From an uncultured Nitrospiraceae bacterium (GTDB taxonomy: Bacteria; Nitrospirota; Thermodesulfovibrionia; Thermodesulfovibrionales; SM23-35): a stretch of 58,481 bases of DNA. A program made the translations under genes and the position numbers. Below, one piece after another: positions 131 through 56,968 of this stretch. The notes under the pieces were generated by a model. The model saw only the letters and a program-made list of their open reading frames with translations. It did not search any database and was not told the origin of the DNA. The stretch spans positions 1-58,481 of the forward strand of contig CAYOJI010000002.1 in the NCBI GenBank assembly GCA_964404225.1, given 5' to 3'. Position 1 is the stretch's first letter. The number at the start of each line of letters is the position of its first letter.

Positions 131-706
131 ATGTTTAAAAAATCTTTATTTTTACTGCTGTTTATATTTTTGCTTTCCGGTGTGTCTTCAGCATTAGAGT
201 TTTCAGCAGACACAATAATGACTTTAAAAGGCCAAGGTAAAACAACTGGTAAAATATATTACAAATCTGACAAATTTAGGATGGATATAGAGTCGCCGGA
301 AAAGATGATTACAATTACTCGAATAGACAAAAAGGTAGTCTGGAATATTATGCCTGCTCAGAAAATGTATATGGAATTACCCCTAAATCTAAAAAATAAA
401 CCAATGGTGGAAGAAAAGTTTGAGGGAGAGATTGAAAGAAAATATATTGGCAAAGAAACGATAGACGGACATCCTACTAAGAAGTATCTTATAACATATA
501 AATATGGCAACAAGACAGATCAGGTTTATCAATGGTGGGCAACTGATATAAATTTTCCTGTAAAAACAGCAGCTACCGATAATTCATGGGTTCAGGAATA
601 TAAGAATGTAAAAATTAGCACACAGTCAAACGATTTGTTTGAGATACCTAAAGGTTATAAAAGATTCCAATTCCCTGGTGGTATGAATATGAAAGATTTC
701 AGATAG
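131..706 (+). CDS. Secreted LolA-like/DUF4412-like protein, function unknown
   Basis: 191-aa ORF with a hydrophobic N-terminal signal peptide (MFKKSLFLLLFIFLLSGVSSA), a good SD and a beta-rich composition. The family assignment is from memory only. Confidence 0.6.
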   Translation: MFKKSLFLLLFIFLLSGVSSALEFSADTIMTLKGQGKTTGKIYYKSDKFRMDIESPEKMITITRIDKKVVWNIMPAQKMYMELPLNLKNKPMVEEKFEGEIERKYIGKETIDGHPTKKYLITYKYGNKTDQVYQWWATDINFPVKTAATDNSWVQEYKNVKISTQSNDLFEIPKGYKRFQFPGGMNMKDFR

Positions 707-732: not shown

Positions 733-1740
733 ATGAGAGAAGCGATGTTTTATGAAAAACTTGAAGAAAAAAAAGTAAGGTGCTTTTTATGCGCTCATCA
801 CTGCATTATAAAAGAAGGTAAAAGGGGCATATGCTATGTCCGAAAAAATAATGATGGAATTCTGTACTCTCTTGTTTATGGTAAAGTTATCTCAATGAAT
901 ATTGACCCTATTGAAAAGAAGCCTCTTTTTCATTTTCTTCCTGGTTCAACCTCTTTTTCTATTGCAACCATAGGGTGTAATTTCCGATGTGAACATTGTC
1001 AGAATTTTGAGATTTCCCAATATCCCAAAGAACATGAAGATATTATAGGTCATTCTGTTACACCCGAAGACATTGTCGAGGCAGCAACCAATAATGGGTG
1101 TGAAAGCATCTCATATACTTACACAGAACCAACCATATTTTTTGAGTTTGCTTATGATTGCGCAAAACTTGCACATAAAAAAGGGATCAAGAATGTTTTT
1201 GTAAGTAATGGTTATACGAGTCCCGAAGCAACCAAGGCTATTGCTCCTTATCTTGATGGAAATAATATAGATCTTAAAGGAAATGATGATTTCTATAAAA
1301 AATTATGTGGTGCAAGAGTTAATCCGGTCAAAGAGACAATAAAGCTTATGAAAGAACTTGGTGTTTGGGTCGAGGTAACCACTTTAATCATCCCTGATTA
1401 TAATGATTCTGAAGATGATCTAAAAGAGATAGCCGAATTTATTTATTCTGTTGATCCTTCTATCCCGTGGCACGTAACCCAATTTTATCCAACATATAAA
1501 CTGACGGATAAACCACGAACGCCCATCCAGACATTACGCAAGGCAAGGGAAATCGGATTCAAAGCAGGACTTAAATATGTTTATGAAGGCAATGTACCGG
1601 GAGAGGGTGGAGAAAATACTTTTTGTCCTAATTGTAAGGAACTTCTTATAAAACGTTTTGGGTTTAGAATAATAGAAAATAAAATAATCCATGGAAAATG
1701 TAGTAAATGTGGCATCTCAATTGATGGAGTATGGGAGTAA
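733..1740 (+). CDS. amrS: AmmeMemoRadiSam-system radical SAM enzyme (PflA-like activase family)
   Basis: Has the CNFRCEHCQN radical-SAM CxxxCxxC motif, an N-terminal Cys cluster (CFLCAHHC) and a C-terminal CPNC...CSKC zinc-ribbon-like pair, all typical of this family. Confidence 0.8.
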   Translation: MREAMFYEKLEEKKVRCFLCAHHCIIKEGKRGICYVRKNNDGILYSLVYGKVISMNIDPIEKKPLFHFLPGSTSFSIATIGCNFRCEHCQNFEISQYPKEHEDIIGHSVTPEDIVEAATNNGCESISYTYTEPTIFFEFAYDCAKLAHKKGIKNVFVSNGYTSPEATKAIAPYLDGNNIDLKGNDDFYKKLCGARVNPVKETIKLMKELGVWVEVTTLIIPDYNDSEDDLKEIAEFIYSVDPSIPWHVTQFYPTYKLTDKPRTPIQTLRKAREIGFKAGLKYVYEGNVPGEGGENTFCPNCKELLIKRFGFRIIENKIIHGKCSKCGISIDGVWE

Positions 1741-2934: not shown

Positions 2935-3567
2935 ATGGAACAAAATCTTGGAGTATTTCTTATTTCAGCAATAGTAATATCTCTTTCAGGTGTCCTATCA
3001 CCAGGACCTATGACTGTAGCAGCCATTCAGCAGGGTGGGAGATCTAAACTTACAGGGCTGTATATTGCTTTTGGTCATGGTGTTGTTGAAATACCCCTAA
3101 TTATATTGATATTTCTCGGTGCTGATATCATTTTAAAATTAGATTGGATAAGAATATTAATAGGTATTGCGGGTGGAATTTATCTTATGTTCATCGGTAA
3201 AAATTTGCTTTTCATTAAAAATAACAAAGATGTTTACCAAAATAATAAAACCCGTTCTTCTTTTTATTCTGGCATACTCTTGAGTATCGGAAATCCTTAT
3301 TTCCTTTTATGGTGGGGGACAATAGGTGCAGGACTTGTTTTTAGTGCTTTAAAGTTCGGGCTAATAGGTTTATTTTTATTCTCCCTACTACACTGGTTAT
3401 GTGATGTTATATGGTACGGTTTTATCTCTATAGCTTCTTTTAAAGGGACAAAGCTATTGGGTGAAGGAGTCTATAAAAAAATAAGTATCTTATGTGGTAT
3501 TGCTATGTTTTTTTATGCAGGAGTTTTTATCGTAAATTCATTAACTCAAATAATGCAGATTTTGTGA
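2935..3567 (+). CDS. LysE/RhtB-family amino-acid exporter
   Basis: 210-aa polytopic membrane protein with the PGP motif near the N-terminus (SPGPMTV), typical of the LysE family. Confidence 0.7.
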   Translation: MEQNLGVFLISAIVISLSGVLSPGPMTVAAIQQGGRSKLTGLYIAFGHGVVEIPLIILIFLGADIILKLDWIRILIGIAGGIYLMFIGKNLLFIKNNKDVYQNNKTRSSFYSGILLSIGNPYFLLWWGTIGAGLVFSALKFGLIGLFLFSLLHWLCDVIWYGFISIASFKGTKLLGEGVYKKISILCGIAMFFYAGVFIVNSLTQIMQIL

Positions 3568-3600
3568 AAATTTATTTTTTTCGATCTCTTAATGTACCTT
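3551..3600 (+). repeat. Dispersed repeat copy A; near-identical copy at 37301..37350
   Basis: TAATGCAGAT-TTTGTGAAAA-TTTATTTTT..CTTAATGTAC is shared with 37301..37350. Copy A includes the last codons and the stop of the LysE-family gene. Confidence 0.6.
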
Positions 3601-3655
3601 AAAAATTTTTGTCCGTTAAATTTATCTACCGATAAACTATCGGAGTTTATACACC

Positions 3656-3862
3656 TCATGCACCTCCATATCCAATTGTTACATTCCCCTTTTCGATAAT
3701 GACGGGAACTTTTCGAATACCATTTGAATATTTAAGCATTTCTTCAAGTTTAGAAATATCAGTCCTGACATCGAAATATTGCGCCCTGTCTCCATAGGCT
3801 CGCCTAGCCCTTTCTGTAAAGGGTCAACCTTCTTTCCCATATATAATTACCTTCTCAGACAT
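3656..3862 (-). CDS. Glutaredoxin-like (thioredoxin-fold) selenoprotein, 68 codons, with in-frame TGA (Sec) at codon 13
   Basis: AAGGAGGG SD lies 5 nt upstream of the ATG at 3862. Translation is MSEKVIIYGKEG-U-PFTERARRAYGDRAQYFDVRTDISKLEEMLKYSNGIRKVPVIIEKGNVTIGYGGA. The TGA (3826..3824) sits exactly where glutaredoxins carry the first Cys of CPxC/CPxS. The downstream VPVI...G..IGYGG matches the Grx cis-Pro/GG region. Read as a stop, the TGA gives only a 12-aa peptide. Confidence 0.75.
3796..3826 (-). promoter_or_regulatory. Candidate bacterial SECIS element downstream of the UGA
   Basis: The mRNA reads UGA-CCCUUU-ACAG-AAAGGG (a 6-bp hairpin directly after UGA). An overlapping alternative is GGGCU-AGGCG-AGCCU, with a G-rich apical loop about 18 nt after the UGA. 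Confidence 0.45.
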
Positions 3863-3897
3863 GATAACCCTCCTTCATATTCGAATTGAATGTTTAT

Positions 3898-4770
3898 TTA
3901 AGTTGATAAATATCTTTTAGGATTTTTAGTTATACATTTCATTATAGCCTTTTCATCAAATCCATTGGCTATTAGCCATTTTGATGATTCTGTAACAGTC
4001 ATACAGCCACCCAAAAGTTTTTTCTCAGAATCTTTAATAGCTTGTATTTTGGGTGATATTTTTGTCTCCTTTACCGAATCTGAAACTATAATAATTTTCT
4101 CGTTATTTTTTATCTTGAAAATCATTTCGAGGGTTTTTAGATGGATATGATATGGGTCTGCAATTATTTCGATATATATGTCCTGGTTTATAATTCCGAA
4201 TCCTGCTATCCCCGGTTCTCTATGATGGAATCCGCGCATCGCATTAAATATATGAGTAATGCCCTTTGCCCCTGCACGAAAACCAGCCTCTGCTTCATTA
4301 TAGGTAGCTTCAGAGTGTCCCATGCTAACTATAATACCCTTATCAGAAGCCTTTTTAATAAGTTTTAGAGAATTATTTAATTCAGGTGCTATAGTTATTA
4401 TCTTTATTATATCTTCAAAGCCATTTATCAATTTTTCAAGATTGTAGAGATTCGGTTCGATAAATGAGGCGGGGGATAACGAACCACATTTTGAAGGATT
4501 AAGGAACGGACCTTCAAGATATATTCCCAAAATTTTTGCCTCCCGCGATTTAGATTTTTTATTTTGAAGTTCCATTGCTTTCCTAACTGTTTTCATATTT
4601 TCTCTCATCTCTTTTATCGAGGAAGGATATATGGAGAGAATGATTTCAGAAACACCGGATATACCCTGTAATTCAGCGATCTTTTGTATTGCATTTTCAC
4701 TGGTAGCCTTTGTATCATAACCGCCTACTCCATGACTATGGATATCAATAATTTTCATTAAGCCTGCCAT
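3898..4770 (-). CDS. nagA: N-acetylglucosamine-6-phosphate deacetylase-like amidohydrolase, short form
   Basis: IDIHSHGVGG metal-binding start and the GHSEATY....GAKGITHIFNAMRGFHHREPGIAG block match NagA. The N-terminal beta-sandwich of canonical NagA appears to be absent. Confidence 0.65.
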   Translation of the reverse strand: MAGLMKIIDIHSHGVGGYDTKATSENAIQKIAELQGISGVSEIILSIYPSSIKEMRENMKTVRKAMELQNKKSKSREAKILGIYLEGPFLNPSKCGSLSPASFIEPNLYNLEKLINGFEDIIKIITIAPELNNSLKLIKKASDKGIIVSMGHSEATYNEAEAGFRAGAKGITHIFNAMRGFHHREPGIAGFGIINQDIYIEIIADPYHIHLKTLEMIFKIKNNEKIIIVSDSVKETKISPKIQAIKDSEKKLLGGCMTVTESSKWLIANGFDEKAIMKCITKNPKRYLST

Positions 4771-26565: not shown

Positions 26566-28620
26566 CTATTTTCGCAATTCTCCGCCTGTATGTTCGAGAA
26601 TATATTTTATGAGGGAGAGATGGATTCTTTCGACCTCTTCATCAGTAAGGGTTTTTTCTTTAGAGCGGTAAATAATATTTAATGCTACGCTTTTTTTGCC
26701 AGAAGGGATATTACTGCCTTTATAATAATCAAATATCGATACTTCTTCGATCAATTCGGTAGGATACGACGTTACCAACTCCTTAATTTTTATCGAAGGT
26801 ATATCCTCATCTACTACAATCGCCATATCACGTTCGATATAAGGATACTTAGGAATTGGTACATATTTAATCGATTCCGTAATAAAACCAAAAAGAACTT
26901 CAAGGTCTATTTCGAACAAAACGATTTCGGGCTTTTGTTTTTTCAAATCTAATCTTTCCACAACTTTTGGACTCAAGACCCCCAAATATCCTACAAAAGA
27001 CTCAGAAACATGAATATCCGCTGCCTTTCCCTCTTGTAAAAAAGGTTGGGTAGAATTTGAAAATTTATAATCCTTTATTTTCAAATCATCTAAGATAGAC
27101 TCGATAACCCCTTTAACTATAAAAAATTTCTCGGTATCGTCTTTCCACAAAGATGGGAATTTGTCTTTATAAAAGATGCCGCCAAGCTTTAATTTCTCTG
27201 CCGGTAAGATATTCCCTACATCTTCAAATACCAATGACACTTCGAATAATCTTATTTCTTTTATTCCTCTATCTATGTTGTATTTTAAATTTCCAATTAA
27301 TGAGGGTACCAAGGTTGTACGTAACATACAGTCCTCTGTAGTTAATGGATTACTTAATTTTATAGCCTTTCTCCTTTTATCAGAAAAGGGAACATCGAGC
27401 ATATCAAGGCTCGATAGACTCATGAAACTATAATTGATCGCTTCAGTAAATCCTGTTTTTTTGAGGGCTTCTTTTAAACACTTTATACTTTGGGTTCTTC
27501 TATCTAATCGTATCGAAGGAAGAGGGCTTCTTGGAATCGTTACAGGAATATTGTTATATCCATACAATCTCGCAATTTCTTCTGCAATATCATTTTCCAT
27601 TGCTATGTCTCGTCTGTGTGTAGGGGGATATATTATACATATATCATTTCTATCTTCAGCATAAATATCGAGACTTTTAAGGATTTCGAGAATATTCGAT
27701 TTAGGGATGCTTGTGCCCAAAATTTTATTTATTCTCTCAAACCTTATCTCGAGCGGTTTTATCTCATATCTTACAGGATATTCATCTATTATTTTGTGAA
27801 TAGTTCCGCCAACAACTTTTTTGATTAGAAGAGCTGCCCTGTTAAGAGCATTTACGAGGAATTCTATATCTGTACCTCTCTCAAATCTATAAGAAGATTC
27901 GGTTTTAAGGTTCAGAAATTTCGAAGTCTTTCTTATTGAAAATGGATCAAAATATGCGCTTTCAAGAAATATATTTTCTGTTTTTTCTGTTACCCCTGTA
28001 TTTAAACCACCCATTATACCTGCTACTGCTATTGGCCTTTTATCATCCCATATGAGTAAGGCTTCATCGTTTAATTTCCTCTCTATTCCATCGAGTGTTA
28101 TGATTTTATTATTGCTTCCTGCTATATCAATTCTTATTTTTCTTCCATTAATTTTATCTGCATCAAATGCATGAAGAGGATGTCCAAATTCTAAAAGCAC
28201 ATAGTTTGTGATATCAACAACATTATTTATGGGCCTGATACCGCATTTTTCTAATCTTGTCTTTATCCACTCTGGTGAATCTGAAATGACTACATTTGTT
28301 ACTAACCTTCCTGTATAACGATTACAAAGGTTGGGCTTTAAGATTTTGATTGAAAAATCTGATTTCGGTTGATTTTCATTAATCTCATGTTCAGGAATTT
28401 TTAAAGGTATTTTAAAAACTGCTGATAATTCTCTGGCTATGCCCAATATACTAAGGCAGTCAGGCCTGTTAGGGGTAACATTTATTTCGAATACAATATC
28501 GTCATTAATATGTTCTGTCCCCTCAACCTCAAACCCAATCATTGTGAGACTTTCTGCTACTTCCTTGGAGGTTACAGGGATATCAATAAACTCTTTCAAC
28601 CATTCATAAGGAACTCGCAT
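26566..28620 (-). CDS. pheT: Phenylalanyl-tRNA synthetase beta subunit, short form lacking the B2 OB-fold domain
   Basis: MRVPYEWLKEFI start, NVTPNRPDCLSILGIAREL, and the B3_4, B5 and FDX-ACB regions are recognisable. At 684 aa it is missing about 110 aa between the B1 start and TPNRPDC. Confidence 0.95.
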   Translation of the reverse strand: MRVPYEWLKEFIDIPVTSKEVAESLTMIGFEVEGTEHINDDIVFEINVTPNRPDCLSILGIARELSAVFKIPLKIPEHEINENQPKSDFSIKILKPNLCNRYTGRLVTNVVISDSPEWIKTRLEKCGIRPINNVVDITNYVLLEFGHPLHAFDADKINGRKIRIDIAGSNNKIITLDGIERKLNDEALLIWDDKRPIAVAGIMGGLNTGVTEKTENIFLESAYFDPFSIRKTSKFLNLKTESSYRFERGTDIEFLVNALNRAALLIKKVVGGTIHKIIDEYPVRYEIKPLEIRFERINKILGTSIPKSNILEILKSLDIYAEDRNDICIIYPPTHRRDIAMENDIAEEIARLYGYNNIPVTIPRSPLPSIRLDRRTQSIKCLKEALKKTGFTEAINYSFMSLSSLDMLDVPFSDKRRKAIKLSNPLTTEDCMLRTTLVPSLIGNLKYNIDRGIKEIRLFEVSLVFEDVGNILPAEKLKLGGIFYKDKFPSLWKDDTEKFFIVKGVIESILDDLKIKDYKFSNSTQPFLQEGKAADIHVSESFVGYLGVLSPKVVERLDLKKQKPEIVLFEIDLEVLFGFITESIKYVPIPKYPYIERDMAIVVDEDIPSIKIKELVTSYPTELIEEVSIFDYYKGSNIPSGKKSVALNIIYRSKEKTLTDEEVERIHLSLIKYILEHTGGELRK

Positions 28621-28687: not shown

Positions 28688-29701
28688 TCAAAACTGTTTC
28701 AAGAATCTTATATCATTTTCAAAGAATAGTCTTATGTCATCTATAGAATATTTGAGCATTGCTATTCGTTCTACTCCCATACCAAAGGCAAACCCCGAGT
28801 ATAGATTAATATCATAATTTACCATTTCGAAAACCTTTGGATTTATCATACCGGCTCCAAGTATCTCAAGCCATCCTGTATTCTTGCAGACTCTGCACCC
28901 CTTCCCTGCGCAAAATATACAACAGATATCTACTTCGGCACTCGGCTCAGTAAATGGGAAAAAGCTTGGTCTGAACCTCACGCGTGTTTCTGTACCAAAT
29001 ATACTGTGTATAAATGATTCAAGTACCCCCTTGAGATCACTAAAAGCGATATCTGTATCAACCATAAATCCCTCTACTTGATGAAACATAGGGGTGTGCG
29101 AGATATCTGCATCACATCGATAAACCTTTCCGGGTGCGATAACCTTTAAGGGTGGTTTTTTCTTCTCCATTACCCTTATCTGAACAGGTGAAGTATGCGT
29201 TCTTAAAACAACTTCATCAGAAATATAAAAAGTATCCTGCATATCCCTTGCAGGATGATCCTTAGGTATATTTAATGCCTCAAAATTATAATAATCGAGT
29301 TCTACTTCCGGACCTTCTTCTACCTCGAACCCCATAGAAACAAATATATCCGTTATCTCTGAAAGTATTTTATTTATAGGATGATCTCTTCCAAATGGTG
29401 TATATTTTCCGGGAAGAGTTATATCAAGGGCTTCAGAAAGGATTCTTTTCCTATGTTCTTCTTGTTTAAGGAGGGATTCTATCTTCTTTATCTCATCTTC
29501 AATGTAAACTTTAATTTCGTTTAATGTCTTACCAAAAGCAGGCCGCACTTCAGGAGAAATCGAAGGAAGATTCTTAAGTTTTAGGGTTACAAGACCCTTC
29601 TTCCCAAGATATTTTACTCTTAGCTGTTGGAGATCAGAAATTGTTTTAACCGATTTTTTATCTTCAAGAAATAAATTTTTAAGTGAAAGAATCTCTTCCA
29701 C
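28688..29701 (-). CDS. pheS: Phenylalanyl-tRNA synthetase alpha subunit
   Basis: Class II motifs: HPARDMQDTFY, FRPSFFPFTEPS, GFAFGMGVERIAM. Confidence 0.95.
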   Translation of the reverse strand: MEEILSLKNLFLEDKKSVKTISDLQQLRVKYLGKKGLVTLKLKNLPSISPEVRPAFGKTLNEIKVYIEDEIKKIESLLKQEEHRKRILSEALDITLPGKYTPFGRDHPINKILSEITDIFVSMGFEVEEGPEVELDYYNFEALNIPKDHPARDMQDTFYISDEVVLRTHTSPVQIRVMEKKKPPLKVIAPGKVYRCDADISHTPMFHQVEGFMVDTDIAFSDLKGVLESFIHSIFGTETRVRFRPSFFPFTEPSAEVDICCIFCAGKGCRVCKNTGWLEILGAGMINPKVFEMVNYDINLYSGFAFGMGVERIAMLKYSIDDIRLFFENDIRFLKQF

Positions 29702-41543: not shown

Positions 41544-41770
41544 TACGGTCGGAAGTCAGGGAAGAGGAGTGAACCTTAAATGGTGATTCTCCCGCTGCCC
41601 CGCAGCCGTGATGGGAACGAAAGCCCAGAAAGACAGTGAATTAGAAAAAAGTGAATTAGTGAGTTTAAAAAACAAATTCACTGTTTATAAAAGCCACTGT
41701 CATGAGTAATATTATGATGGGAAGGTGGGCAAGTAGGATGCCCTAAGCCGGAAGACCTATCTAAACCGTA
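41544..41770 (+). promoter_or_regulatory. Cobalamin (B12) riboswitch
   Basis: P1 is TACGGT/ACCGTA. Conserved core elements present: AGGGAAG (41558-64), GGTGA, GCTGCCCCGCAGCCGTGA, GCCACTG (41693-99), GGGAAGG (41719-25), and the B12 box AGCCGGAAGACCT (41746-58). It lies upstream of btuC-btuD-cobO. Confidence 0.85.
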
Positions 41771-41898: not shown

Positions 41899-42966
41899 AT
41901 GGGCTTTACAGTCGTGAAGAGATATTTAGACAAACTTCGGATGTTATCTATGAAAAATAAATTAAATTGTTTACTAACTAAGATTGTGGTTTTAGTAGGA
42001 ATTCTTTTGGGAATAGGCATTTTCTCTTTATCCATTGGTTCTGTAAGTATCCCTATTAAGAAAATTTTTTCTTTAGTCTTAGGGGGTGAGTCCACAACTG
42101 AATATAGTGTCTTATTTGACATTCGTTTACCCCGCATTATTTTAGGTTTTGCTATAGGTGGAGCATTGAGTCTGGCGGGGGTGATTTTACAGGGAATATT
42201 CCGTAATCCACTAGTTGAACCATACACACTTGGCATCTCGGGTGGAGCAGCATTGGGCGTATGCTTGAATATTCTATTTAAGTTAAACGAAATATTTAGC
42301 ATTCTATCATTACCATTATGTGGCTTTATTGGTGCAATTGCGGTAATTGTTTTACTTTACTTTTTTAGTTTAAAAAGAGGGTTTTTTAAAATACATGAAA
42401 TCCTACTCGCTGGTGTAATGATAAGTTTTATCTCTTCATCTTTAGTAATGCTAATTATGGCTACGTCTCGCACAGAAGACCTTCACGGAATTATCTTTTG
42501 GATAATGGGTTCTTTAGAAGAACCAAATTGGCTTCTTATAAAATTGATGGTTTTTATATCCATTTTAGGATTAATTGTATCTTATTTGTTTTGTTTAGAT
42601 TTAAATGCTCTCTCCTTAGGTGAAGAGGAGGCAATTCATCTTGGCATAGATATAGAGAAGGTAAAAAAAATACTTTTTCTTTTAACTTCACTCCTGACAG
42701 GCTTCGGCGTTTCTATTACGGGTATTATTGGTTTCGTTGGTTTGGTTGTTCCACATTTCGTCAGAATATTTGTAGGTGGAGATTATAGAATACTTTTAGT
42801 TAGTTCTTTTCTTTGTGGCGCAGGTTTCTTGATTTTTTGTGATACCTTAGCAAGGACAATTATTGCCCCTACGGAATTGCCAGTGGGGGTAATAACGGGT
42901 ATATTGGGAGGTAGCCTTTTTATATATGCCTTAACTAAGAAGGGAACATCTTTAGGAGAAAAGTAA
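41899..42966 (+). CDS. btuC: FecCD/BtuC-family ABC permease (cobalamin/corrinoid or siderophore type)
   Basis: FecCD-family motifs (RLPRI..G...GGALSLAG...Q...RNPL..P...G). The true start may be an internal ATG (41941 or 41950). Confidence 0.85.
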   Translation: MGFTVVKRYLDKLRMLSMKNKLNCLLTKIVVLVGILLGIGIFSLSIGSVSIPIKKIFSLVLGGESTTEYSVLFDIRLPRIILGFAIGGALSLAGVILQGIFRNPLVEPYTLGISGGAALGVCLNILFKLNEIFSILSLPLCGFIGAIAVIVLLYFFSLKRGFFKIHEILLAGVMISFISSSLVMLIMATSRTEDLHGIIFWIMGSLEEPNWLLIKLMVFISILGLIVSYLFCLDLNALSLGEEEAIHLGIDIEKVKKILFLLTSLLTGFGVSITGIIGFVGLVVPHFVRIFVGGDYRILLVSSFLCGAGFLIFCDTLARTIIAPTELPVGVITGILGGSLFIYALTKKGTSLGEK

Positions 42967-54434: not shown

Positions 54435-56060
54435 ATGCTTAAAGGTTACCTTTGTATTGTTCTTCATGCCCACTTACCCTTTATTAGACATCCCGAATAC
54501 GAATATTTTCTTGAAGAGAATTGGCTTTTTGAAGCAATAACAGAGACCTATATACCGTTAATTGAAATGTTTACAAGACTTTTAAATGAAGAGATTGACT
54601 TTAAAATAACTATATCTCTTAGCCCCACCTTAATCGAAATGTTAAATGATAGCCTTTTACGTCAAAGATATAAGAGGCACTTAAATATATTGATAGATTT
54701 ATCAGAGAAAGAAATTCATAGAACAAAGAAGGATATCAAATTCCAGCCACTTGCAAAGATGTACAACAGAAAATTCAAAAAGACATACTATTTATTTGAT
54801 GAAGTTTATAAAAAAGATCTTATATCTGTTTTTAGAGGATTGGCAAAAACTGGCAAGATAGAGATGATTAGCTCTTCAGGTACACATGCTTTTTTGCCTG
54901 TCTTATCAAAATATCCTCCAGCGGTTGAGGCTCAGATAAAGATAGGGACCGATTTTTATAGAAAAATCTTTAGAAGGAATCCTACGGGCATGTGGCTTCC
55001 GGAATGCGGTTATGAACCAGGGTTTGATAATTATATAAAAAATGAAGGCATAAAGTTTATTTTTCTTGAAAGACATGGTATTACTGGTGCTATTCCTCCC
55101 CCTCGTTTAAGTGTTTATGTGCCTGTAGTCTGTCCTTCTGGTATTTTTGCTTTCGGGAGAGATAATGAATCTTCACAACAGGTCTGGTCCTCTATATATG
55201 GTTATCCTGGCGATTTTAATTACAGAGACTTTTATAGGGATATAGGGTATGACATAGAAGATGAACATATTAAGTGCTTTAATAATCTGTTTGGGACGAA
55301 GACTTTTACTGGAATGAAGTATTATAGGATAACGGGTAATACAGATAAAAAGGAGCCTTATGTGGTAGAAAGGGCAATAAAAAAAGCTTATGAACACGCA
55401 ATAGATTTTATTAATAAAAGGGAAATTCAGATTGATTATCTTTCCCGCACCCTGAATATTAAACCCATAGTCACCGCAATGTATGATGCCGAACTTTTTG
55501 GTCATTGGTGGTTTGAGGGTCCTGAATGGCTTTATTTTCTTTTTAAATTTATACATAAAAAAGGCCAGAATTTTAAAACAATAACACCTTCCGAATATCT
55601 TATGTTACACGGAAGTAAAGCTGAGCATTTTCAAGTTTGCAAGCCTTCCATGTCAAGCTGGGGTCATAGGGGTTTCAATGAAGTTTGGGTAAACGAGTTT
55701 AATGATTACATTTACCCACATATTTTGAAAGCCACCGAAAGGATGATATATCTTGCTGAAATAAAATTTGATGCACAGGGTATCGAGAGGAAGGCCCTCA
55801 ATCAAGCTGCGAGGGAACTTATATTATCTCAGCAGAGTGATTGGGCCTTTATGATGAAAACGGGCAATACTTCAGAATATGCGAAAAGACGTCTTGCAGA
55901 ACATCTAAATAGATTCAGTTATCTTTATACAGCAATTACATCTGAAAATATTTCAAAAAAGGAGCTTAAGAAGATAGAGGATAAAGATAATATATTTAAA
56001 TATATGGATTTTAGGTATTTTAAAGGCGGATATCACAGAAATAGTAACGACAGAATTTAA
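54435..56060 (+). CDS. GH57-family 1,4-alpha-glucan branching enzyme (with DUF1957 C-terminal domain)
   Basis: The N-terminus GYLCIVLHAHLPFIRHPE is typical of GH57 branching enzymes. Also has the DAELFGHWWFEG motif. Confidence 0.85.
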   Translation: MLKGYLCIVLHAHLPFIRHPEYEYFLEENWLFEAITETYIPLIEMFTRLLNEEIDFKITISLSPTLIEMLNDSLLRQRYKRHLNILIDLSEKEIHRTKKDIKFQPLAKMYNRKFKKTYYLFDEVYKKDLISVFRGLAKTGKIEMISSSGTHAFLPVLSKYPPAVEAQIKIGTDFYRKIFRRNPTGMWLPECGYEPGFDNYIKNEGIKFIFLERHGITGAIPPPRLSVYVPVVCPSGIFAFGRDNESSQQVWSSIYGYPGDFNYRDFYRDIGYDIEDEHIKCFNNLFGTKTFTGMKYYRITGNTDKKEPYVVERAIKKAYEHAIDFINKREIQIDYLSRTLNIKPIVTAMYDAELFGHWWFEGPEWLYFLFKFIHKKGQNFKTITPSEYLMLHGSKAEHFQVCKPSMSSWGHRGFNEVWVNEFNDYIYPHILKATERMIYLAEIKFDAQGIERKALNQAARELILSQQSDWAFMMKTGNTSEYAKRRLAEHLNRFSYLYTAITSENISKKELKKIEDKDNIFKYMDFRYFKGGYHRNSNDRI

Positions 56061-56968
56061 GATAACAATTTATCGAATGGATAAGATTTCAGGAAAGATA
56101 AAAACTCATCTAAGGCATTGGATGAAACTGCATTCTTATTAAAAATTACAGAGAAATCTCTTACCATCTTTTCTTCTTTAAATCCCAGTAATTTCAGTGT
56201 CCCATATTTTTGTTCTTTTCTTGCAGCCCAACGGGAGATTATTGATACCCCCAATCCATTTTCAACGGCATCTTTTATAGCTTCTGTACTGCCAAGAACA
56301 GCGGTTATCTTCATATCATGTGGGGTAATTCCATGTTTGGAAAGGAATTTTTCTATAATCTGCCGGGTCCCCGAACCTGCTTCCCTAAAAATGAAAGGTT
56401 CTTTAACTATTTCTGAGATAGAGATTTCTTTCTTCTTTGCCCAAGGATGGTCAGGTGGAACAATTAAAGTAAGCTCATCAGAAATTAGTTTTTTGACTAT
56501 CATCTTTTGTAAAGAGACATCCCCTTCAACAAAGCCGATGTTAATATTGCCTGAATTTAGTAGTTCAATCACCTTTTTTGTATTGCCGACAATAAGGTAA
56601 ATCTTTATTTTGGGATGTGAAGATCTAAACTCTGTAATTATACTGGGTAGGATATAATTTCCTATATTTGAACCTGCGCCGATCGTCAAACTTCCTTTTA
56701 CAAGTCCCACTTGTTTACTTATAGCCTTTTCAGCGGCAGCATAAAGGGAAAGAATCTCTTTAGCATATTTGTAAAGTATCTCTCCTGCAGGGGTAAGGGT
56801 TACTGTGCTGGAAGATCTATCAAATAATTTTGTTTCATATTTTTCCTCAAGGGCTTGGATTTGAAGACTTACAGCAGGCTGTGTGAGATGAATGATCTCA
56901 GATGTCTTTGAAAAACTTTTTGTTTCAGCAACAGTGCAAAAGACTTTTAATTTGTGATCTTCCATCAA
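56057..56968 (-). CDS. LysR-family transcriptional regulator
   Basis: N-terminal HTH (FSKTSEIIHLTQPAVSLQIQALE) plus a LysR substrate-binding domain. Confidence 0.9.
   Translation of the reverse strand: MMEDHKLKVFCTVAETKSFSKTSEIIHLTQPAVSLQIQALEEKYETKLFDRSSSTVTLTPAGEILYKYAKEILSLYAAAEKAISKQVGLVKGSLTIGAGSNIGNYILPSIITEFRSSHPKIKIYLIVGNTKKVIELLNSGNINIGFVEGDVSLQKMIVKKLISDELTLIVPPDHPWAKKKEISISEIVKEPFIFREAGSGTRQIIEKFLSKHGITPHDMKITAVLGSTEAIKDAVENGLGVSIISRWAARKEQKYGTLKLLGFKEEKMVRDFSVIFNKNAVSSNALDEFLSFLKSYPFDKLLS

Follow-up and report, generated by a model that had tools for sequence, protein, structure and literature searches.

Does a reading frame that is interrupted by TGA after only 12 codons encode a selenoprotein, and if it does, where does the gene end, by what means would the TGA be recoded, and what could such a protein do? 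The question is raised by a locus on the minus strand of a contig from an uncultured Nitrospiraceae bacterium, of which a stretch of 58,481 nt was analysed (hereafter the window). As will be argued below, the locus is very probably a real selenoprotein gene of the UXX-star family 1, with two selenocysteine (Sec) residues, hairpin-aided recoding and a proposed redox pair.

Gene layout

The features of the locus to which the following paragraphs refer are these.

3647..3862 (-): full coding sequence, assigned to UXX-star selenoprotein family 1; 71 sense codons plus TAA, 216 nt
3875..3868 (-): Shine-Dalgarno (SD) sequence AAGGAGGG, with a 5-nt spacer to the ATG; read from the sequence
3862..3860 (-): start codon ATG; read from the sequence
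3826..3824 (-): UGA1, codon 13 (Sec13), the U of U-P-F-T at residues 13-16
3658..3656 (-): UGA2, codon for Sec69, at the "UXX-star" position, third from the C-terminal end
3649..3647 (-): true stop codon TAA, placed from the sequence and the family layout
3810..3796 (-): hairpin 1, within the coding sequence, GGGCU-AGGCG-AGCCU; 5 bp, loop starting 18 nt after UGA1
3643..3629 (-): hairpin 2, in the 3' UTR, CCGAUA-GUU-UAUCGG; 6 bp, loop starting 18 nt after UGA2

The initial annotation had described a strong SD, an ATG at 3862(-), a TGA after 12 codons and a glutaredoxin-like frame beyond it, and all of these are present in the sequence. When the minus strand is translated with read-through of TGA, the product is MSEKVIIYGKEG-U-PFTERARRAYGDRAQYFDVRTDISKLEEMLKYSNGIRKVPVIIEKGNVTIGYGGA, or in summary MSEKVIIYGKEG-U-PFT...GYGGA-U-GV, where the motif U-P-F-T that had been reported is read directly. 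The end of the gene needs to be moved, as it had been set at 3656 for a protein of 68 residues: at position 3656 a second in-frame TGA ends, after which the frame reads GGT GTA TAA, so that the protein tail is G-G-A-U-G-V and the gene runs to 3647. The plain list of open reading frames gives at this locus only an out-of-frame ORF of 53 aa (3679..3840, minus strand). Upstream, a nagA-like ORF ends at 3898, which agrees with the 35-nt gap to the selenoprotein gene noted before. This nagA-like gene itself (3898..4770, minus strand, 290 aa) covers positions 58-280 of the 380 in the nagA profile and scores 203.5, below the cutoff of 225.65; the ORF represents either an amidohydrolase that is short and divergent or a gene that has been truncated.

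Family assignment

For the profile scan, the 71-residue product with both TGA codons replaced by Cys was compared with NCBIfam. The model NF041114, an equivalog named "UXX-star selenoprotein family 1", is matched with 106.4 bits (cutoff 72, E = 6.6e-31) over profile positions 1-70 of 70; the cutoff of the parent subfamily NF041212 is likewise exceeded (73.9 bits versus 66), as is the gathering score of Pfam PF00462, Glutaredoxin (29.5 bits versus 22.9). The earlier description as a glutaredoxin-fold selenoprotein is thus borne out by the HMM check, the matches to NF041114 and PF00462 being far beyond chance. The protein has 76% identity to a copy in a Nitrospirota MAG and 94% to a copy in a Logan metagenome.

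The locus had also been presented as a hidden gene of a new kind, which does not hold, since it exceeds the curated cutoff of an existing equivalog. In fact the family has already entered the literature: the table of a 2026 review (PMC13188914) gives NF041114 as UxxT with 2 Sec under the name "Distant Grx-like protein 1", and the same review cites Haft & Tolstoy 2025 in two places, namely in the table entries of UXX-star family 2 and the HUGP/GUXX-star fusion and, with regard to the UXX-star family, in the running text. The two-Sec UxxT form is not explicitly described in the main text of the GOS paper of Zhang & Gladyshev 2008; because that main text does not spell out the form, we take the prior art to be the NCBIfam model together with the review table. 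The gene belongs, as an ordinary member, to a family that is curated already, and nothing about it is new in kind. For annotation, the appropriate call is a selenoprotein gene of 71 codons with two Sec, where a 12-aa peptide, a 53-aa out-of-frame ORF, or a Trp-containing protein under another genetic code would each be wrong.

Conservation around the two TGA codons

Relatives were found in 13 species-representative genomes, which belong to Nitrospirota, Dissulfurispiraceae, Syntrophales, Desulfobacterales, Desulfatiglandales, Nitrospinota and other Thermodesulfobacteriota, and all 13 have TGA at both columns. After UGA2 each of them has two codons and then a true stop, the two codons encoding G-V in 12 of the 13 and I-V once. 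In a scan of metagenomes, whose first pattern required a Cys codon at column 13, 24 members with C-P-[YFH]-[TS] at this column were collected (L014-L036 and L038), and the TGA-x-x-stop layout is kept in all 24, whereas it is absent from classical CPxC glutaredoxins of the same scan. Altogether, this layout occurs in the window and in 38 of 38 family-member loci.

The database homologues (67 proteins, P0001-P0067) give a complementary picture: 38 carry W at both columns and 11 carry Cys at column 13, among them P0016, P0019 and P0020. It had been suggested to check whether Cys-containing homologues align their active-site Cys with the first UGA, and they do so, both in P0016, P0019 and P0020 and in the 24 metagenomic loci. 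As for the second site, no Cys at the C-terminal Sec column was found among the 67 database proteins and the 38 family-member loci; a Cys/Sec pair, accordingly, exists for column 13 only and not for column 69. That Cys was not seen at column 69 suggests a requirement for selenium chemistry at this position.

The substitution pattern points in the same direction. Over codons 14-68, comparison with the related locus L001 gives 9, 5 and 36 differences at the first, second and third codon positions, respectively; over codons 70-71, five of six relatives differ from the window by synonymous changes only; past the final stop, ungapped identity drops to 12-50%. Such a prevalence of synonymous substitutions after both TGAs argues that both are translated. 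Comparison across the family shows that purifying selection maintains two UGA codons, each of which has a hairpin positioned after it.

Against this background, the reading that the first TGA is an ordinary stop, which would leave a 12-residue peptide followed by an untranslated pseudogene relic resembling a glutaredoxin, has hardly any chance of being right. It has the default reading of the genetic code on its side, together with the fact that Sec machinery is not seen in the window, but it is opposed by the same TGA and the same conserved protein in 13 genomes from several phyla, by downstream substitutions that fall mainly at third codon positions, by close homologues with Cys in place of the TGA, and by a covarying hairpin 3' of it.

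The second TGA deserves a separate consideration, for the initial annotation proposed a "monoselenol" protein of 68 residues, a U-x-x-T form with a single Sec, for which the TGA at 3658..3656 would be the real stop. Several facts can be brought forward for this reading: the 68-residue version, lacking the last three residues, already exceeds the NF041114 cutoff with 98 bits; TGA is a common stop in the window (15 of 53 ORFs); and public gene calls of the Cys-13 homologues stop at the second TGA, as do all nine of the 11 database proteins that have a parseable C-terminus. However, without the tail the coverage of the profile ends at position 67, and it is only with U-G-V that the alignment gains 8 further bits and reaches the profile end at 70 of 70. 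Moreover, exactly two more codons and then a stop follow in every member, with Gly-Val in the window as in 12 of the 13 genome loci; these two codons vary synonymously; a hairpin of SECIS geometry follows the second TGA in most of 33 distinct sequences; and the review lists 2 Sec for the family (PMC13188914). A single-Sec protein therefore seems very improbable: the second Sec codon stands third from the C-terminus and has a hairpin of its own in the 3' UTR.

Genetic code and genomic context

If TGA encoded Trp or Gly in this organism (genetic code 4 or 25), both positions would be plain sense codons and no recoding would be needed. The 38 of 67 public homologues with W at both columns could be read in this way; some of these entries extend past the true stop where that stop is also TGA. 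The Trp translations are evidently a systematic artefact, produced as gene callers switched short contigs to TGA = Trp because of the in-frame TGAs. In the window, TGA terminates 15 of the 53 large ORFs, including some that match family profiles to their ends, and a scan of the window for other genes interrupted by in-frame TGA gave no convincing case. As TGA is a common stop and a second case is lacking, the standard code is in use and recoding is confined to this gene. It also speaks against a changed code that the first TGA stands at a catalytic column equivalent to Cys, and that the lineage is Nitrospirota-like: the PheS of the window is closest to those of Nitrospirota/Thermodesulfovibrionales MAGs, and Nitrospirota are not known to depart from the standard genetic code. 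We consider a reassigned TGA extremely unlikely.

With respect to Sec machinery, tRNA-Sec was found neither in the 58-kb window nor in 35 related loci, and selA, selB and selD are absent among the 28 ORFs scanned in the window, about which a piece of 58 kb says little. An indirect hint of a selenium context may be seen in an ORF at 56057..56968 (minus strand, 303 aa) that exceeds the cutoff of NF040786 (298 bits versus 250), the model for a LysR family transcriptional regulator associated with selenium metabolism; next to it lie a glucan-branching-enzyme-like ORF and the RNase P RNA, and no selenium genes. The selenoprotein gene itself marks this Nitrospirota-like organism as a probable user of selenocysteine.

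No conserved gene neighbourhood was observed among the related loci beyond four near-identical Syntrophales loci, and no metal-resistance or transport genes lie beside the gene, be it in the window or at any of the related loci. Having no conserved neighbours, the protein is probably a general small redox carrier and not a dedicated part of an operon.

Some other features of the window may be recorded here. The PheT ORF (26566..28620, minus strand, 684 aa), just upstream of which pheS ends at 28688, has a match to the bacterial pheT profile that begins at position 156 of 798, so that an N-terminal region of about 150 residues is absent. A BtuC-like ABC permease (41899..42966, plus strand) is directly preceded by a cobalamin riboswitch (41558..41758, plus strand), which is a standard arrangement. 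At 733..1740 on the plus strand, an AmmeMemoRadiSam-system radical SAM enzyme is encoded (365.6 bits versus 220), and a 191-aa ORF at 131..706, just upstream of it, could be its partner in this system.

Hairpins downstream of the two TGA codons

Two hairpins lying directly 3' of the first UGA had been proposed as candidates for a bacterial SECIS element. Both are present, and they differ greatly in their conservation. The stem GGGCU-AGGCG-AGCCU (hairpin 1) is conserved and covarying: over 12 distinct Sec-13 sequences, 88% of the cells are paired, in comparison with 17-55% when the partners are slid, and its pairing and covariation are reached by 0 of 500 shuffles. Its closing pair is CG in eight sequences, UA in three and AU in one, which arises from two synonymous third positions. 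The other candidate, CCCUUU-ACAG-AAAGGG (3823..3808), is rejected as a SECIS, as it is paired to 58%, is equalled by 202 of 500 shuffles, and occurs in the window and L001 without being conserved further.

Since the helix of hairpin 1 overlies the codons for a conserved A-R-x-A-Y, the Cys-13 members were taken as a control for coding constraint. On average 4.4 of the 5 pairs are kept in Sec-13 sequences versus 3.0 of 5 in Cys-13 sequences (Mann-Whitney p = 0.002), a difference to be taken as indicative, the sequences being phylogenetically non-independent. Part of the hairpin is thus kept in some Cys-13 members, which means that coding constraints contribute to its conservation. Specifically, in L016, L020, L021 and L027 four or five of the 5 pairs persist in the segment about 17-31 nt downstream of the Cys-13 codon, and L016 and L020, both with Cys-13, also retain the AGGUC loop; these four may be recent Sec-to-Cys conversions, or the A-R-S-A codons may favour the stem.

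The hairpins after UGA2 were compared in 33 distinct members. They are mostly present and start 9-22 nt after the UGA, with stem sequences that differ; the loops lie mostly at nucleotides 20-28 and read GU, GGUC, AGUUG or CGUGC, mostly with G-U or G-G. Their mean folding energy is -9.2 kcal/mol and their mean z against dinucleotide shuffles is -1.55, with 21 of the 33 below z = -1; the window's own hairpin 2 has z = -1.1. In the window, where G+C is 34%, both stems are weak (-5.2 kcal/mol for hairpin 1 and -4.6 kcal/mol for hairpin 2). For comparison, when the same distance was examined behind 53 ordinary stops, the best hairpin averaged about -1.5 kcal/mol, and only 3 of the 53 reached -4.6.

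In the published bSECIS model, the stem has 4-16 bp, the loop 3-9 nt, the spacing between UGA and loop is 16-37 nt, a G is found within the first two nucleotides of the loop and usually has G or U after it, and the energy is -7.5 kcal/mol or lower. Both hairpins agree with it in loop size, stem length, position of the G and spacing. The isolated stems fall short of -7.5 kcal/mol, a threshold for which the extent of the structure is undefined. A search of Rfam over 3560..3900 returned no SECIS or other family, even at E = 10.

From these data we infer that SelB-dependent Sec insertion would take place at both sites. A hairpin of its own would assist the recoding of each UGA, in the geometry of the bacterial SECIS elements that bind SelB; the first hairpin is built from the codons for (R)-A-R-R-A-Y, and the second, beginning 4 nt past the TAA, would act from the 3' UTR. 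The gene would in this respect be a compact case, with two SECIS-directed recoding events within 216 nt, one with a coding hairpin and one with a hairpin in the 3' UTR.

Fold and active site

When the family profile was searched against PDB sequences, the matches were glutaredoxins only. In these alignments column 13 falls on the first Cys of CPYC/CPHC and V-P on the cis-Pro, and they end at profile position 65 or before. The earlier claim that the first UGA occupies the column of the first active-site Cys is confirmed in this way, with Cys found at this column in P0016, P0019 and P0020. T16 is invariant across the family, and the protein ends four residues past the GG motif.

The structure was modelled on a natural Cys-13 homologue, P0020, which is 72% identical and lacks the Sec tail. 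Its AF2 model (pLDDT 80.7) is predicted to have the order beta-alpha-beta-alpha-beta-beta, with no helix past the last strand (beta4), and the best PDB matches of this model in Foldseek are glutaredoxins and NrdH, with TM 0.70-0.75.

Possible chemistry of the two Sec residues

How would such a protein work without a second cysteine in its active site? In the mechanism that we propose, Thr stands in for the resolving Cys of CxxC, and in place of the usual C-terminal helix there is a short tail beginning at the GG motif, a motif which lines the active-site groove of glutaredoxins. With Thr at the resolving position, and with a tail starting from GG where the helix should be, Sec69 is proposed as the partner of Sec13: an intramolecular selenenylselenide would form between them and provide a two-electron redox couple, and the Cys-13 relatives would instead form a selenenylsulfide with their C-terminal Sec. 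Reasoning purely from this layout, we infer, speculatively, that Sec13 and Sec69 may be a redox couple. That the protein is a minimal diselenide oxidoreductase of 71 residues, with an intramolecular Sec13-Sec69 diselenide and an obligate C-terminal Sec, is a tentative proposal, possible rather than probable. If true, it would represent a natural bacterial Se-Se redox couple; an experimental demonstration of such a couple for UXX-star family 1 was not found in the literature.

The same gene and the same recoding could also serve a different purpose, in which the two Sec residues are ligands of a soft metal or metalloid (Hg, As, Cu, Se) and not a catalytic redox pair. The need for selenolate chemistry would suit the fact that the C-terminal Sec has no Cys counterpart; furthermore, several double-Sec families in the review table bind metals, and the review raises the alternative that the Sec residues bind metals or unknown substrates (PMC13188914). 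On the other hand, neither metal-resistance or transport genes nor conserved neighbours accompany the gene in the window or at the related loci, and both the fold and the U/C-P-x-T site are of the thiol-disulfide oxidoreductase type. Metal binding is regarded as possible, though less likely than not. What is of residual interest in this gene is the chemistry of the Sec pair, be it an Se-Se redox couple or a metal ligand.

Comparison with known systems

To place the gene among what is already described, the nearest system is UXX-star family 1 (NF041114) itself, which shares the length of about 70 residues, the glutaredoxin-like fold, the UxxT motif and the second Sec at the third position from the C-terminus; no differences were detected. 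UXX-star families 2 and 3 and the HUGP/GUXX-star fusion (NF041211, NF047338 and NF045501, respectively) are alike in having a glutaredoxin-like domain that ends in U-x-x-stop, but the present protein scores far below their cutoffs (37 versus 100, 40 versus 97 and 50 versus 325). Besides, family 2 has 1 Sec (GxGU) according to the review (PMC13188914), and the fusion selenoprotein carries an extra HUGP domain.

The classical dithiol glutaredoxins, for example E. coli Grx3 (3GRX/1FOV) and cGrx1/cGrx2 (7C10/4TR0), are similar in fold at the TM values given above, in the positions of the first active-site residue, the cis-Pro (V-P) and the GG motif, and in belonging to PF00462. They differ in two aspects, and neither the C-x-x-C nor the helix after GG, by which this class is defined, is found here. 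In the classical proteins the active site is CxxC, whereas here the first Cys has become Sec and the second Thr; and they have a C-terminal helix, which is absent here, where a Sec-containing tail ends the protein shortly past GG.

A more distant likeness is offered by mammalian thioredoxin reductase with its G-C-U-G tail, which also has a Sec in the penultimate region, a flexible C-terminal tail and a SECIS after the stop codon. Its tail shuttles electrons to and from a buried redox centre, and the likeness would be a mechanistic one only. The enzyme is unrelated in fold and size and depends on the eukaryotic SECIS and machinery; moreover, the partner of its Sec is the adjacent Cys, whereas the partner proposed here would be a distant active-site residue, Sec in the present protein or Cys in its Cys-13 relatives.
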